64,000 nucleotides of DNA, taken from Verrucomicrobiia bacterium (GTDB taxonomy: Bacteria; Verrucomicrobiota; Verrucomicrobiia; Limisphaerales; UBA1319). The first letter of the stretch is position 1. Every line of letters begins with the position of its first letter. Location of the stretch: NCBI GenBank assembly GCA_963664225.1, contig OY760937.1:704001-768000 (forward strand), written 5' to 3'. The position numbers are program-made. This document shows, piece after piece, positions 15,001 through 24,000 of this stretch.

Positions 15001-18000
15001 ACACGATTTGAAGTTGGGGCAAAAACCAGGAGGCGGATGGCGGTGGTGGCATCGGCAGCGGTGCCATTAAATGTATAAGCACCCGGTCCAGCCAATGTGA
15101 AACCCGAGCCTGTCAACGAGGCAGGGGTGAACGCACCTTTCGCGGCGTTGTCCAGGGTTATGGTTGTGTCCAGAGTTTGCGCGGGCACATCGCTATTTGC
15201 AATCGTCACCCCGACGAATGGTGAGAGAGTGGCGTTATCATTCACCGCCTGTCCAGACAGAGTTCCGGCTATTGTTGGTGGCAAATTCACAGTTGCAGTG
15301 GCGCTCGGTCCGGCGGCCGGAGCCGTATTTCCCGCCAGATCAATGGCGGTTCCGGCAGCGATGGAGATACCCAGAGGACCATGGCCTGTAATATTGGAGA
15401 TGCTGACGGTGCGCGTGAGTCCGCTCCCGGAGACGGTGATCGTCCCACCGGCGGTGCCCGGGCTGTTCAAAGTGATGTCTCCGACGGCCAGCGTGCTCAC
15501 ATCGAAGTTTGCATCAGCATAAGTCACCGTAAAATCCACTGAACCGCCGGTTGTAACCGTCGGCGAAGGCGCGCTGATGACGATGGTGGGGGCCACGCCG
15601 TCCACGAGGATACCGCTGGTGCCGGCCATGCCATTTAAAGTGAGATTTGCGTTGATCGCCGACGAATCCCGCAGTGTGGCGCCGTTGAGCACGAGCGCTC
15701 CGGCCAGTGCGATTCCGTCGTTATCGCCATTTCCGGCTGCGACCACATATCGAAAGGTTAAGGCGGTTGAACCGCTGCCGGAGAGGTATGCGGCCTGCAC
15801 CGTTCCTCCTGTGGAGAGCGTGACTGGAAGGTAAGGGGTTGCGCCAGCGACCACGATTGCCTCGTTGAAAGTGACGGTAAAATCCAGCGCCTGACCGACC
15901 CCATAAAGTGCGTCAGGTGGAACGTCAACGGAATTGACGGTCGGCACAACTGAAATATTTGCAGTTTTGGATTGCGCATCGACAATGGCCACGGCACTAG
16001 CGCTTCCGGGTGCGGTGGCGGTAAACGTGGCGGTGGCGGTTCCAGAAGACTGAATCGTAGTTTGCGCAGAGGACAGGGTGCCATGCACGGCGCTTCCAAA
16101 AGTTATGGGAACACCGACCAAGGCAGCAAGGTTGGCCGGACTGATGGTGTTGGCGCCGGAATCAGTCAGAAAGCTGGCGGTCAGTGTGGTGGTTCCTCCC
16201 ACGCCGTCGGCAATGGTGGCTGGACTGGCCGAGTGGGTCATTTGCAGCCAAAGGGTGGCCGTGGCGTTCACCATCTGGTTGGCTGCGGGACCGGTGTTGA
16301 TCCCCCACCAATTATCATTGGCGGTCAAGGTGCTACTGGTTCCACCGCGTAAAGTCAGGCCGTTGGCCGCAGTGGCTGCGGTGTTTCCAAGGAAACGACA
16401 ATAACTGACTGTGACATTGTGGCCGCTGCCGTCGGCAGATCCGATGGCTCCACCAGCGCCAGTCGGGCTTGTGGCCTGGTTGTTTTGGAATGTGGACAAG
16501 GCGATCGTCAATGTGCCGCTTTGGTTATAAATAGCTCCACCTCTGGTATTTAAGCCAGTAATCTGATTTCCAATAAAACTGCAGCCACTGATCGAGTAGG
16601 TGGTTCCCAAGCCTGTGGTTTCAATCGCGCCACCATTTCCGCTCGTGGAAATGTTATTGGTGAATTGCGAACTGGACAAGGTCAGGATGCCAGTCCCTCC
16701 GCTGGTGCTGGCGTCGAAAGCAATTGCGCCTCCGCCACCAGAAGACCCATTACCATTAAATGTGCAGTTGCTTACCGTGAGGTTGCCTCCTGCGTTCGCA
16801 ATCGCACCCCCGATTGGGGAACCGAACCCGGAGGCGAAGTTGTCCGTGAAGAGACATCCTGTGACAATAGTCTGGTTCAAGCCGGATCCGCTGATCATGG
16901 CGCCACCGCCAATACCTGTGGTTTCACGTCCGCCTCTCATGGTGACATTCTTGACTGTGAAGAGGAAACTTGCATCGAGGTTGGGATTCACCTCCAGCAC
17001 GCGATCATTTGGCCTGGTCTGCTGGATGATTGTGGCAGCCGCAGATATGCCTTCAATAGTGGTACCGCTGCGGGTGATGTCCAGATCGCCCACGGCCGGG
17101 TCGGCCGGATAGTTTTCGCCCGTTCCGTCGATTGATAATTGATAAGTGCCTGCAGGAATAAGAATCCGGTGGGGAGCGCCGGTGGGGTCGTTGTTTGCGG
17201 CGATGATCGCTTCGCGCAAGCTGATGCCGTCCGGGCCTGGGCTGCCGGTTAACGCGCTGATGCTCGTGGTGTTGCCGTTGATTGCATCCGCGGTCGTGGT
17301 CACGGTGATGTCTGTCGCATATCCGCTCTGAGCTAAACAGAGGACCAGCATCGACGAGGCAATAAACAGTTTTTTCATGGGAATCATGTTCAAAAAGGAA
17401 CGGCGGAAGAAGCAGCAGCACGGAAAGGCGCAGCCTGGCCGATTGTCAGCCAGACCGGACAGATGATGATGGATTGTTGCAGGTGCAATGAGATCAATCT
17501 CAGTTTCTGCTTGGAAAAACTCCGAATAACCCGATGCAAAAATTGAGGACAAGATAGGGTGACAAATTATTGTGGGGCTGGTTGCCCCCAGCAAGCGATG
17601 GGCTGCCGGGACTGATGGTTGCGTTGCTGGTTGAAGAATAGAGATTCACCGTTTGACGCAGGGCCTTGGCTGCGGCCCACGAGTGGTTCGTTGGAGAACT
17701 TTGATTGCCTGCGCCGGTATTGGCCGAAAAATGTGTATGCATGGGCAATCCCGTGTTTGACAATGTGACATTTGTCGTACCCCCTTCTTCACCCAAGAAG
17801 CGTTGCGTTAATCCGGGACCCTGACCTTGATGGATGGGAGCGCGGCCCTGCAAATTGGGCAGGGCAAAGTTGGTGGTGCCGTTACCGCCATAGGTTGTTC
17901 CCAGAATTGAAAAAAGCGCGGTATTCTGTTGGATGGGCAGCAATTGACCGTTGCACATGGCCCAATTGCGCGGGGCGAAGTTAAACCCAAATATCCGAAT

Positions 18001-21000: not shown

Positions 21001-24000
21001 GATCAACAAGGCATCTTCCTTATTGCAAAATGCCGGAACATCGGGAGAAACGTTGGGCAACAAAGTCAAATCACGATGGGAGCCCGGTATGATGCGTGTG
21101 GGGCCCTTCTCCCAGGTCAGATCATCAAAGTACATGCCTACGAAGACATCTTTTGGATAATGATATTCCTTGCCAGGCATTCCATCGGGCTCGCGGTCTT
21201 TGTGCCATTTGGGAACGGAATTGGGATCCTCGGGCGACTGAATCAACCAACGATTCATGTACAATGAGGGCAGGGGATTGGCGACGGAATGGCTCAGGGC
21301 AGGGGTCAATACCTGTCGCACGCGTGGCGCCAAGGCCGGCCAGATGATCAATGGGGATTCACCTGGCAGGTCCCATTCGAGGCCATCAAAGAACAGAGCC
21401 GCTTTAACCTGTTCGGCAAAGGCGTCCACAGTCTCACGCTTAAAGACCTGCGGCAGGATGACAAAGCCGAGATCACGGAATTCGGCCATCATTCGGTCCA
21501 GTTCCGGTTTTGGATAAAGCTCTGTTACAAATTCCAGCAATGGGGTATCCATAATTAGATCCATTTAATTTTCCAAAGCAGTGTTGGTTGAATCCCGGAA
21601 AAGTTCCCGGTGCTTTGCCACCAAATCCGCATAAGGACCGGCCATCCAACGTTCCGCCAGTTGGTGTATCTCTGCGCTGGCCTCCTTCTTTTTATCCTCA
21701 CTGTCATTGCTGAATTGAAAGTGAGGATTTTTGGCATGGAACTGGGTTACGCGCTGCATTTGCTCAATTTCCCCGGCTGAATGTTGGAGTCGAAAATGGG
21801 TTGAGATGCCCGTCAAAACTGCGTCTGGTAATTGTCGGTAGTCCACCAGCAATCCCGTTTCATCGGGGAAATGTTCCAGGGCGGCCGCGCAGATTCTTCC
21901 AATCAGGGCAGCACAATACTCGTTCATTGAGAGTTGGCACAAGAGCTCCGGGTTCAATCCCATCAGGCCAGGCTCAAGGGCCATCGGCAAAAGCAATCCC
22001 CCGCGCTGACGAAACTGGGAGACGAGCACCTCGACCGGGTCACGATAAATGAATATCCACGGCACTGTTGGAAATGCCCGACGGATCAAGTCCAAACTCA
22101 GTGTGTTGATGCAGTCGAATTTGATAAAAAACTGTTTTTGTTCCGCAAGATTGGGTTGCGCCATGGCGTTCACCATGGCACGAATCCAGGTCAATTGCTC
22201 TTCGGGATCAAGGTTTGGGGTGCGATAGTTGGCCCGGATCATGACATCAATGGGGCCTGCCTCGGAAATGACGATGTTTTTCGCCAGCGCGGCATACATC
22301 TGCGATACCAGCGTCGATCCGCAACGCGACATATGGAAGATAAAGCCGTTGGGCGCCACTCCCGGATGCGAAGCGGCTCGTTCAAGCAAGGTTTCGACGG
22401 GCGTTTGGGGACGGAACAGCAGATTGTAGGGCAGACGCATGCACCGGCTAATGGTCTGATCGAAGAAGGAATCCGTGAAACGCCCGGCTCCCAGATAACA
22501 CCAGTCGATCATGGGGCGCGATTGCCGCCAATAAACCCGGATGGGAACGTAACCTTGCAATTGAGCGGAATTAATCATGGGGTTGGGAAATTCCAGTTAA
22601 CAAACAAACCGCTCGATCCAAGCCTGCATGTTGCCGCGTATGGCGATTTCCACCTCATCGCTCGAGAATGAGAAACCCTGTTCCGCTCCAAGTTGCACGA
22701 CCGACGCAGAAAAAGCTGTCCTGTCCGATATGCCGCGCAGTTGTTCCTGCAAGGCCCGATTCTCCAGAACCCGCTCGCAGAATTGTTCAAGACTGGTTTG
22801 TGACATGCCTTCGGTAATTTGACTGCCCATGTTGCGAGCACACTAACGGGAGCCTCGGTTTTGTAAAGTCTTCAGCAAACCAAAGGGTGTATTTTCCCAT
22901 ATTGAATAGGGTTGCGGGTCCTCATGCGGGAAGCTTAGGATACGTCGCGCCGCGCCTGAAAACCGATTTTTTTGTGGCCGGTGGCTGCCAATTGGCCTGA
23001 TTTTCAAGCAAGTGAAGCTCAAAATATAAATTGATCATGTCCGACCGTTTGCCCATTTACGATATTGAAAAGGAGATCATCACCCGGCTCCAGGAGTCGC
23101 GCCGTCTCATACTGCAGGCACCGACGGGTTCTGGAAAATCCACCCAGGTGCCGCAGATGTTGCTCGGGCATGGGTTGTTGAATGACGGACAAGTGGTGAT
23201 TTTGCAGCCTCGGCGATTGGCGGCGCGCTTGCTGGCCGCGCGTGTGGCACGTGAGCAGGGGGTGGAGTTGGGACGAGAGGTGGGATACCAGATTCGTTTT
23301 GAAAACCGCACCAGCGCGGCGACGCGGATCCGATTTGTGACCGAGGGGATTTTGTTGCGGCAGATGCTCAGGGATCCGCTGCTGGCGGGAATCCAGGTCT
23401 TGATTTTCGATGAGTTTCACGAGCGGCATTTGTATGGGGACATCACTTTGGCGCAAGCGTTGGAGCTTCAGGAAACCAGGCGGCCCGATTTGTTGATTAT
23501 CGTGATGTCGGCAACGCTGAACGCCGAGGGGTTGGAAAAGTATCTGAATCCTTGCGCCATGGTGTCCTCCGAAGGACGGATGTTTCCGGTGGAAATGGAA
23601 TACGCAATGCCACGGCCGCACACCAATCCTCCTCCGGTATGGGAGATGGCGGCGGAGGCTTTTCAGAAGCATGTGGTCTGCAATGGGGAAGGGGATGTTT
23701 TGGTGTTTATGCCAGGGGGCTATGAAATCCAGCAAACCATTGAAGCGATCCGCCAATGTCCCGAATCCAAAGGCTACATTCTGCTGCCATTGCACGGGGA
23801 GCTTCCACCGGGCGATCAGGATGCGGCCGTGGAGCGTTACGATCGTCCAAAGGTGGTGGTCTCGACCAACGTGGCTGAAACTTCGCTGACCATTGATGGT
23901 GTCCGGTTGGTGATTGACAGCGGGCTGGCGCGGATTCCCCGTTATGATCCGCACCGCGGGATCAATACGTTGCTGGTGGAGAAGATCAGCCGGGCCTCGG

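Follow-up and report, generated by a model that had tools for sequence, protein, structure and literature searches.

A core-less Nif11 mini-protein as a candidate docking subunit of a PAPS-type sulfotransferase linked to Fe(II)/2-oxoglutarate oxygenases

A Nif11-domain mini-protein encoded directly ahead of a sulfotransferase (ST) gene in a Verrucomicrobiia bacterium seems to be the docking piece of a widespread soil-bacterial enzyme set, whose target is probably hydroxylated first and sulfated afterwards. With slightly better than even confidence, we propose that this Nif11 domain, which lacks a core peptide, is a non-catalytic docking subunit of the ST within a hydroxylate-then-sulfate module that accompanies a cluster of Collar, DUF6916 and GNAT genes. 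The locus lies in a 64,000-nt stretch of contig OY760937.1 (positions 704,001 to 768,000), referred to here as the window, and comprises the following genes, numbered from the first base of the window:

22597..22830, minus strand: Nif11-domain mini-protein, 77 aa, ending ...AWIERFVC, without a core peptide (Pfam Nif11, homologue alignment)
21565..22578, minus strand: PAPS-type sulfotransferase (predicted), 337 aa (Pfam Sulfotransfer_3, 31.9 bits)
20788..21564, minus strand: PhyH-type Fe(II)/2-oxoglutarate oxygenase, 258 aa (Pfam PhyH, 30.2 bits)
20447..20791, minus strand: short DUF6916 protein, 114 aa (Pfam DUF6916, 90.9 bits)
19911..20450, plus strand: GNAT N-acetyltransferase, 179 aa (Pfam Acetyltransf_7/_1/_10)
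19110..19724, minus strand: long DUF6916 protein with a Tat-like signal, MPTRREFLL... (DUF6916, 67.7 bits)
18565..19071, minus strand: tail-collar protein 1, 168 aa (Pfam Collar, 97.2 bits)
18043..18531, minus strand: tail-collar protein 2, 162 aa (Pfam Collar, 99.5 bits)
17500..18024, minus strand: tail-collar protein 3, 174 aa (Pfam Collar, 97.9 bits)
14373..17387, minus strand: large secreted surface protein (Pfam PMP repeat, Big_9 and cadherin-like domains)

All of these except the surface protein gene had been placed at the same coordinates in an initial annotation, which had also reported the 18-nt gap that we find between the mini-protein and ST genes. The PhyH gene starts at the base right after the ST stop codon, the short DUF6916 gene shares its first 4 nt with the end of the PhyH gene, and the GNAT gene is convergent with the short DUF6916 gene. 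The long DUF6916 protein likely starts at Met39 of its ORF (position 19610), and its match to the TAT_signal_seq model is weak (14 bits, cut-off 16.7). The large surface protein, 1004 aa when counted from Met70 of its ORF, has a signal-peptide-like start and is a member of the Collar cluster.

Pairing and fusion of Nif11 with the sulfotransferase

We assembled 88 related ST loci from many phyla, 87 of which have upstream DNA. Using an HMM derived from the mini-proteins, we found a Nif11 domain directly before the ST or fused to it in 82 of these 87, a pairing far above chance that bears out the conserved gene pair described initially. The 88 loci comprise free Nif11 followed by ST (53), AspH-Nif11 followed by ST (24), Nif11-ST fusions (3) and an AspH-Nif11-ST fusion (1); the HMM detected no Nif11 domain by the ST in 5 of the remainder, while one locus has no upstream DNA and one has a 234-nt gap. 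Among the best 150 representatives of the ST family there were 30 Nif11-ST and 3 AspH-Nif11-ST fusions, and the order of domains in fusions was always oxygenase, Nif11, ST. Where the two were compared, the mini-protein stop fell 1-13 nt beyond the position aligned to ST residue 1 (72 of 77 loci). The model of one natural fusion, P0006, had a pTM of 0.91, which is an indirect measure and is not below that of the ST alone (0.89). Within this model, Nif11 residues 11-50 had a pLDDT of 93-97, while the tail block (residues 61-70) reached only 62 and the linker 48; docking of the tail is therefore not seen in the model.

Sulfotransferase assignment

Judging from sequence and modelled structure, the ST is a genuine PAPS-type sulfotransferase with predicted dependence on PAPS, as the initial annotation had held, since its Pfam score, its predicted structure, its fold matches, its invariant motif columns and its PAPS synthase neighbors all point the same way. 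It scored 31.9 bits against Sulfotransfer_3 (cut-off 27), with no match among NCBIfam models, and was modelled with a pLDDT of 88.9. The Foldseek matches listed at E<=0.001 were all sulfotransferase-fold enzymes, led by tyrosylprotein sulfotransferases (TPSTs), and those listed were solved with PAP(S) or named for it, retinol dehydratase included. The closest folds were TPST1/2 and the tick TPST, about 1 Z or more over the next family. The stretches FIFHMSRCGSTL and YRDPVEVLVS, whose conservation had been noted previously, fall in invariant or near-invariant columns across 21 enzymes (H82, S84, R85, G87-L90, R179 and S187 being invariant), and are candidate counterparts of the PAPS-binding (PSB/PB) motifs of solved STs. 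A bifunctional ATP-sulfurylase/APS-kinase (PAPS synthase) gene adjoins the Nif11/ST pair in 9 of the 88 loci.

The ST shares its fold with human TPST1/2 and tick TPST at about 15% identity, yet searches of the PDB with phmmer or a profile (E<=10) gave no sequence-level match to solved STs, TPSTs included. It also differs from them in a conserved, family-specific N-terminal domain of about 70 residues that precedes the TPST-like catalytic domain, in its obligate pairing with Nif11 and in its linkage to an oxygenase. RaxST/RaxX is a bacterial analogy to the tyrosylprotein sulfotransferases. The constant linkage of the present ST to oxygenases suggests that its acceptor is a freshly introduced hydroxyl and not Tyr. 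Unlike the ST domains of CurM and olefin synthase (4gbm, 4gox), it has no PKS context, and the homologue alignment shows no conserved Ser in the Nif11 domain to which a prosthetic arm could attach.

The Collar/DUF6916/GNAT cluster

The linkage to Collar, DUF6916 and GNAT genes that had been proposed across phyla was recovered in the larger set: within ±10 kb of the ST they were present in 58, 49 and 48 of the 88 loci, respectively. GNAT lies no more than 400 nt from DUF6916 in 34 loci, and where two DUF6916 ORFs are present one of them has a twin-arginine N-terminus in 12 of 21 loci. Homologues of the large surface protein stand beside Collar genes in 14 related loci, and BLAST clusters of large Ig/cadherin/RTX proteins are present in 31 and 15 loci. 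When DUF6916 was not found near the ST (16 genomes), it was encoded elsewhere in 14 genomes and absent from two. Collar was present in all 5 further ST genomes. Of 300 sampled genomes from the phylum of the window, 4 had DUF6916 and 2 had the ST, both STs being beside DUF6916; one genome has the Collar/DUF6916/GNAT cluster and no ST. A methyltransferase (MT) is recruited to some loci as well, as an ST-MT fusion (G283) and as a 570-580-aa MT in 5 loci.

Oxygenases as third members and the nature of the substrate

An ORF resembling AspH and proline hydroxylases (AspH-like) adjoins the Nif11/ST pair in 62 of the 88 loci; none was present within 10 kb in the other 26, where no consistent replacement oxygenase was found. 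Both this oxygenase and the PAPS synthase neighbor had been overlooked in the initial annotation. The AspH-like domain, matched by Pfam Asp_Arg_Hydrox (PF05118, 56-67 bits), has as its nearest solved structures L-proline cis-4-hydroxylase (4p7w, E 5.9e-8) and proline 3-hydroxylase (1e5r, E 3.5e-6), both of which act on free L-proline; it differs from them in being only about 190 aa long and often fused to Nif11. The slot that it holds in most related loci is filled in the window by the PhyH gene, whose product is nearest to AsqJ among solved sequences (E 3e-4), a small-molecule enzyme, and also matches a leucine hydroxylase (E 0.47). This PhyH gene had no counterpart in 11 related loci in the earlier reading, and we likewise found none within ±10 kb of the ST in the 88 loci and none in 40 relatives. 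Fusions extend the association: of 27 long ST homologues, 15 contain PF05118, 2 contain 2OG-FeII_Oxy_3 and 3 contain Cupin_8/JmjC, and one case, P0140, is an ST-GNAT-AspH fusion. In more remote homologues of the ST, the fusion partners are JmjC or P4H-type oxygenases and, in a single case, GNAT.

Because the AspH-like domain is nearest to free-proline hydroxylases and PhyH to AsqJ, this evidence favors a small-molecule substrate. The oxygenase would then hydroxylate a free amino acid or similar metabolite, the GNAT would N-acetylate it and the ST would sulfate it, with Nif11 as a scaffold only and the Collar and DUF6916 proteins binding, sensing or using the product. The leucine hydroxylase match, the joining of ST, GNAT and AspH in P0140 and the recruitment of a methyltransferase are also consistent with such a pathway. 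We nevertheless regard it as unlikely. JmjC and P4H-type domains, which the distant ST fusions carry, are mostly protein hydroxylases, the ST fold is nearest to protein-tyrosine STs, and no scaffold-building enzyme recurs among the annotated gene clusters of the related loci. In addition, Nif11 is a known protein-protein module (10.64898/2026.10.04.756588).

Alternatively, Nif11 may partner the ST alone, as a stabilizer, activator or inhibitor, with no bridging to the oxygenase, which would act at another site or step. This would account for the 26 loci with Nif11 and ST that have no AspH-like gene, and for the observation that Nif11 is always beside the ST while the oxygenase may lie upstream, downstream or in convergent orientation. 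We consider it improbable, however, given that AspH is fused to Nif11 in 24 cases and all three domains are joined in several others, their order being fixed, and that four kinds of oxygenase are fused directly to the ST.

The mini-protein as a partner rather than a precursor

The mini-protein scored well above the Pfam Nif11 cut-off (43.9 against 23.8 bits), while its match to the RiPP leader model TIGR03798 was below threshold (30.9 against 32.3 bits) and covered only profile positions 1-51 of 68. Its true length is probably 69 aa, starting from the second ATG at 22806, since the aligned start position is common to most homologues. The homologues are 67-81 aa long, and their conserved part is a C-terminal motif. 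The W-(I/L)-(E/Q)-R-(W/F) tail described initially holds in the slightly broader form W-[ILFVM]-x-[RKQ]-[WF], which 55 of 77 proteins carry when the C-terminus of Nif11 is unfused (36 of 53 free Nif11 proteins and 19 of 24 AspH-fused proteins), as against only 2 of 33 and 3 of 22 in two sets of fusions to the ST. Tyr is missing from the last 10 residues in 59 of 60 mini-proteins, and the homologue comparison revealed no conserved Ser/Thr or Tyr in the tail.

The Nif11 leaders of RiPP systems (N11P, TIGR03798), such as MppE with its aKG/Fe hydroxylase MppG (PDB 9ZN4), share a helical bundle with the mini-protein, residues 9-61 of which align with residues 1-53 of the solved leader. A Nif11 leader has been described as a rigid bundle to which an aKG/Fe hydroxylase binds, and the Nif11 bundle of RiPP systems contacts tailoring enzymes, an Fe/2OG hydroxylase among them (10.64898/2026.10.04.756588). 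The mini-protein differs in that it ends 16-17 residues past the bundle, in that its C-terminus is conserved rather than variable, and in that many lineages have Nif11 domains of this family joined to enzymes. Neither a Gly-Gly cleavage site nor a variable core was found in it or its homologues. No leader peptidase, exporter or core-modifying RiPP enzyme was present among the 12 window proteins scanned (13.6-25.6 kb), and none recurs in the annotated gene clusters of the 88 related loci. The precursor role implied by the initial annotation is thus very unlikely for a protein with no core, no Gly-Gly, a conserved C-terminus and natural fusions to ST or oxygenase; the doubt voiced at the time, that it might be a partner protein, is the better reading.

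We find it very improbable that the mini-protein is itself the substrate (a leader with a very short core, or a modified small protein), with the W-I-E-R-W/F-I tail as the site of hydroxylation and subsequent sulfation: the leader-type domain, the dependence of the motif on a free C-terminus, the location of the tail at the very point where Nif11 leaders start to contact their enzymes, and the possible supply of the missing hydroxyl by the oxygenase fit such a role, but about one fifth of the family representative clusters are tail-less ST fusions with intact enzymes, and the tail, cleavage-site, TIGR03798 and neighborhood results given above also oppose it.

Proposed module and its implications

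In the docking reading that we favor, the mini-gene product would be a core-less Nif11 four-helix bundle acting as docking subunit of the downstream ST, itself a putatively PAPS-dependent enzyme of tyrosylprotein-sulfotransferase-like fold. Where Nif11 is a separate protein, the conserved tail (RRAW-I/L-ER-W/F plus 1-3 residues) may keep it on the ST; once the two are fused, the tail would be unneeded and would decay. A Fe(II)/2-oxoglutarate oxygenase would complete a three-piece module, being PhyH-type and translationally abutting the ST in the window and, in most relatives, a small AspH/proline-hydroxylase-like cupin that is often fused ahead of Nif11. Most likely, the hydroxyl that the ST sulfates comes from the oxygenase. 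The module would be an accessory of a patchy cluster in which a large surface protein and a GNAT are combined with three Collar proteins and two DUF6916 proteins (one with a Tat signal). The most likely targets are the proteins of this cluster, modified in the cytoplasm before export, and this is the weakest step of the proposal.

Engineered leader-fused lanthipeptide synthetases carry a leader peptide fused to the enzyme. They and the Nif11-ST proteins have in common a leader-type domain held covalently on a tailoring enzyme, so that the substrate need not carry the leader; the Nif11-ST fusion differs in that it occurs in nature, recurs in 33 of 150 representatives and belongs to another enzyme class. 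More speculatively, and at a likelihood that we hold to be low, the locus may represent a new bacterial protein-modification route in which a Nif11-scaffolded oxygenase/ST pair and the GNAT hydroxylate, then O-sulfate and also acetylate tail-collar-like or DUF6916 proteins in the cytoplasm, with subsequent export by way of the Tat signal that one of the DUF6916 proteins carries. If this were true, a Nif11 leader of RiPP biosynthesis would have been domesticated and turned into a lasting part of an enzyme, as a natural leader-enzyme fusion.

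Genes of the cluster

Open reading frame (ORF) listing and profile scans recovered the gene set that the initial annotation had described around the Nif11-domain mini-protein and its PAPS-type sulfotransferase (ST). The genes are as follows.

22597-22830, minus strand: Nif11 mini-protein, 77 aa (Pfam Nif11, 43.9 bits)
21565-22578, minus strand: ST, 337 aa, 18 nt after the mini-protein gene (Sulfotransfer_3, 31.9 bits, cut-off 27)
20788-21564, minus strand: PhyH-type oxygenase, its first base directly after the ST stop codon
20447-20791, minus strand: short DUF6916 gene, with a 4-nt overlap with the PhyH stop codon
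19911-20450, plus strand: GNAT
19110-19724 (ORF), minus strand: long DUF6916 gene, weakly matching a Tat signal
17500-19071, minus strand: three Collar genes
14373-17594 (ORF; likely start 17387), minus strand: large surface protein, 1004 aa

As the second methionine of the mini-protein coincides with the aligned start of most homologues, its true product is probably 69 aa. ST was present in only one of 40 relatives, there as a fragment at a contig end, and the PhyH gene in none, so the cluster appears to be accessory and patchily distributed. G+C content was 0.50-0.58 in the cluster region versus 0.61-0.63 at 8-13 kb; the drop from about 0.62 to 0.50-0.58 over 13-23 kb is compatible with an acquired island, and no integrase was seen. 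The high-coordinate flank holds an HrpB-type helicase (23031-25574, plus strand) and tRNA-Val(GAC) (25611-25685, minus strand). Just past the large surface protein, at 13654-14328 (minus strand), lies a 224-aa ORF whose product has a signal peptide, matches Pfam only weakly and has a C-terminal end (GVPEPL, a hydrophobic stretch, then RKLRH) that resembles a PEP-CTERM sorting signal. Scans for promoters and terminators gave scores no better than those of shuffled sequences.

Conservation of the Nif11/ST pair

We searched six-frame ORFs in 88 related loci, with up to 10 kb per side. These loci are not independent samples, and their ORFs were assigned automatically, each with the start that gives the longest frame; some of the fusions, as well as start codons, may therefore reflect errors of gene calling. 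Using the window proteins as phmmer queries, we detected Nif11 in 79 loci, Collar in 58, DUF6916 in 49, GNAT in 48 and PhyH in none; in the 47 loci flanked by 9 kb or more on each side, Nif11 was found in 41, an AspH-like oxygenase (Asp_Arg_Hydrox, PF05118) in 35, Collar in 30, DUF6916 in 27, GNAT in 26 and PhyH again in none. The proposal that mini-protein and ST form a conserved pair was upheld. According to an HMM built from the mini-proteins, a free Nif11 protein accompanies ST in 53 of the 88 loci and an AspH-Nif11 fusion does so in 24, while three loci (L005, L006 and L008) encode a Nif11-ST fusion and one (L007) an AspH-Nif11-ST triple fusion. In a further locus (L048) Nif11 lies 234 nt from ST, five (L011, L020, L043, L071 and L074) gave no Nif11 match with this HMM, and one (L047) has no upstream DNA. 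The Nif11 ORF was always on the same strand as ST, and its stop codon fell 1-13 nt beyond the position aligned to ST residue 1 in 50/53 free and 22/24 AspH-fused cases, as measured from the alignment rather than from mapped start codons. This suggests that the two genes overlap and are coupled. Two loci (L084 and L087) carry two Nif11/ST pairs in tandem, with the second mini-protein ending in SWLERHVL.

A large family of sulfotransferases

The ST family is large and uncharacterized. A word-indexed search returned 3555 relatives at E<=0.001 among 7999 scored proteins, and an exhaustive search of 1.84 billion representatives yielded 4510 at E<=0.001, 3219 at E<=1e-10 and 1816 at E<=1e-30, the last being clusters at 50% identity. 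Among contigs from one genome per species, 423 of 448 candidate stretches encoded a relative; these come mainly from MAGs of Acidobacteriota, Verrucomicrobiota, Chloroflexota, Planctomycetota and Proteobacteria, and the family is common in soil members of the first four phyla.

Searches of PDB sequences with ST, both as a single sequence and as a profile, matched no sulfotransferase. For the AlphaFold2 model (pLDDT 88.9, pTM 0.89), all Foldseek matches listed at E<=0.001 were sulfotransferase-fold enzymes, which places ST in the PAPS sulfotransferase fold. The nearest structures to the model are tyrosylprotein sulfotransferases (TPSTs), although at the sequence level ST does not belong to the TPST family. 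Residues H82, S84, R85, G87-L90, E106, K153, D155, R179, P181 and S187 were invariant in an alignment of 21 STs and presumably form the PAPS-binding motifs; the first ~70 residues, which lie outside the ST fold, were also highly conserved in this alignment. A bifunctional ATP-sulfurylase/APS-kinase directly beside the pair in 9/88 loci fits the use of PAPS by ST. Within the N-terminal region, a conserved hairpin at residues ~10-30 (vPIRVYW....p.vDWCYlG) bears a weak likeness to single blades of fucose-binding beta-propeller lectins (6t99, 7e7n; E 1.2-8, below significance), which could be chance or hint at a sugar- or ligand-binding blade. The most distant ST (L011, 30% identity) has no Nif11 domain, and its gene is flanked by an NRPS condensation-domain gene on one side and a TauD-type dioxygenase on the other; it probably represents a separate subfamily that acts in small-molecule metabolism.

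The mini-protein as a proposed partner of ST

Nif11 domains can lead RiPP precursors, and in RiPP families the variable part is the core. Here the C-terminus is the conserved part, with the consensus RRAW-x-ERWI. NCBIfam TIGR03798 scored 30.9 bits on the window mini-protein, under its cut-off of 32.3, and matched over profile positions 1-51 of 68 only; the protein departs from a Nif11 precursor in this score, in cleavage site, in core and in neighbouring genes. The free mini-proteins (60 read) are 67-81 aa long, and the one in the window comprises a bundle that aligns with residues 1-53 of a Nif11 RiPP leader of known structure, 9ZN4, plus about 16 residues. Residues 1-52 of 9ZN4 are described as a rigid bundle of four helices to which an aKG/Fe hydroxylase binds, and are followed by a disordered region with a motif ahead of the cleavage site and core (10.64898/2026.10.04.756588). 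The mini-proteins, in contrast, come to an end with neither Gly-Gly nor core. If they act as we propose, the likeness to leader-guided RiPP tailoring would lie in a Nif11 bundle that engages enzymes.

Fusions to enzymes also set these Nif11 domains apart from precursors. The domain precedes ST in P0006, P0007, P0021, P0058 and P0111, follows an oxygenase in the same chain in 24 loci, and is central in oxygenase-Nif11-ST triple fusions (L007, P0123, P0128 and others). Nif11-ST fusions make up 30 of the best 150 representative clusters of the family, and AspH-Nif11-ST triples 3 of the 150. The tail motif W-[ILFVM]-x-[RKQ]-[WF] is present in 36/53 free and 19/24 AspH-fused proteins, two groups in which nothing follows the Nif11 domain, whereas ST-fused forms retain it in only 2/33 and 3/22 cases (two sets with three proteins in common). 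The loss of the motif in ST-fused forms argues that these fusions are genuine rather than gene-calling artefacts. It also suggests a role for the tail: in the simplest reading, Nif11 would require it to stay on ST as long as the two are separate polypeptides, and could dispense with it once they are covalently linked. Alternatively, the conserved tail might itself be the substrate, but a fifth of the family would then have intact enzymes and nothing to modify. Taken together, bundle length, lack of Gly-Gly and core, conserved C-terminus, enzyme fusions and tail loss make it very unlikely that the mini-protein is a precursor. A role for Nif11 as a carrier protein was rejected, as there is no conserved Ser.

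We also modelled the natural fusion P0006, which has 59% identity to the window ST. The model was no less confident than that of ST alone (pLDDT 90.5, pTM 0.91); Nif11 residues 11-50 reached pLDDT 93-97, the tail block (61-70) 62 and the linker 48. The input alignment (A4) omitted the mini-proteins and contained only 7 sequences for the Nif11 part; an alignment of fusions, STs and mini-proteins (A3) was discarded because mini-protein tails were misplaced near the ST C-terminus. The model would fit a Nif11 bundle that sits at a defined place on ST, with the caveats that the tail and linker scored low and that contacts cannot be read from it. A homologue search with residues 1-110 of P0006 returned the query alone.

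An oxygenase as third member, and the possible target

The initial annotation was correct as to pair and cluster but overlooked a third member, an AspH-like Fe/2OG oxygenase. An ORF of ~190 aa (Asp_Arg_Hydrox, 56-67 bits) adjoins the pair in 62/88 loci. It may be fused ahead of Nif11, lie upstream as a gene of its own, follow the pair in the same orientation, or converge on it. Among 27 long ST homologues (E<=1e-10), PF05118 was found on 15, 2OG-FeII_Oxy_3 on 2 and Cupin_8/JmjC on 3 (one eukaryotic), in either domain order. P0140 has the order ST-GNAT-AspH; P0143-P0146 join more distant STs with JmjC/Cupin_8 or 2OG-FeII_Oxy_3 domains, a eukaryotic ST-Cupin_8 protein among them. The window PhyH gene, with no homologue in the 88 loci or the 40 relatives, is best seen as a lineage-specific replacement with the same role. 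Given this fusion and adjacency, the oxygenase would supply a hydroxyl group that ST then sulfates. Counting against this proposal, 26 loci have neither an AspH-like gene nor a consistent substitute oxygenase. TauD in L011 was rejected as a replacement, since the ST there is a distant outlier.

As to what would be hydroxylated and sulfated, we tentatively rank a protein above a small molecule. The TPST-like fold of the ST model, fusion partners of the protein-hydroxylase type, the Nif11 domain itself and the failure to find any scaffold-building enzyme speak for a protein, while a small molecule is favoured by the nearest solved relatives of the AspH-like domain, which are free-proline hydroxylases, and of the PhyH protein, which is AsqJ. 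In DUF6916, the conserved polar or aromatic positions are H81, Y103 and N108; a D-Y-E motif was dismissed as a Tyr-sulfation site, as its Tyr, unlike these residues, is not conserved.

Link to the Collar/DUF6916/GNAT system

The linkage of ST to Collar, DUF6916 and GNAT genes, also noted at the outset, held in the larger sample. Genes within 400 nt of each other included DUF6916-GNAT in 34 loci, Collar-DUF6916 in 28 and AspH-GNAT in 22. Large Ig/cadherin/RTX surface proteins lie beside Collar genes, with BLAST clusters in 31 and 15 loci, and homologues of the 1004-aa surface protein occur in 14. In 12/21 loci with two DUF6916 genes, one carries a clear twin-arginine signal by a simple pattern.

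Co-occurrence of ST and DUF6916 is tight at the genome level: 14/16 ST genomes without a nearby DUF6916 gene carry one elsewhere, compared with 0/14 controls, and in a sample of 300 genomes from the window's phylum, four have DUF6916 (one of them weak) and two have ST, both times next to DUF6916. Two ST genomes have no DUF6916 but do have a Collar gene, and one genome (G241) has three Collar, two DUF6916 and a GNAT gene without ST. This co-occurrence suggests that the ST module is accessory to the Collar/DUF6916/GNAT system. A separate 570-580-aa methyltransferase is encoded in 5/88 loci, and at L095 (G283:C6, 9450-11462) a distant ST with a C-terminal methyltransferase domain lies beside GNAT, DUF6916 and Collar genes.

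A protein-atlas search with DUF6916 returned DUF6916 clusters only and no structure. Tail-collar paralogues are reported to be under positive selection in Solibacter usitatus (PMC3174227). Soil metaproteomes are reported to contain COG4675 proteins (PMC5579227), so proteins of this type are expressed in soil.

Implications

Literature searches, with subscription journals outside their coverage, returned nothing on a pairing of Nif11 with sulfotransferases, on tail-collar genes with sulfotransferases or on a chemistry of hydroxylation followed by sulfation; DUF6916 was unmentioned, matches to sulfotransferase, beta-hydroxylase and RiPP together were unrelated, and tail-collar/COG4675 proteins received passing mentions only. 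We read the finding as a core-less, often enzyme-fused Nif11 domain that would serve an uncharacterized oxygenase/sulfotransferase module. Fusions of ST recur with Fe/2OG oxygenases of four kinds and suggest a general chemistry in which a target is hydroxylated and then sulfated, and the module offers a first functional handle on Collar/DUF6916/GNAT clusters. Nif11 domains are now taken to mark RiPP precursors. In the large set described here, which spans phyla, the domain lacks a cargo and would act as an enzyme subunit or fused domain, so that genome-mining rules would mis-call it.
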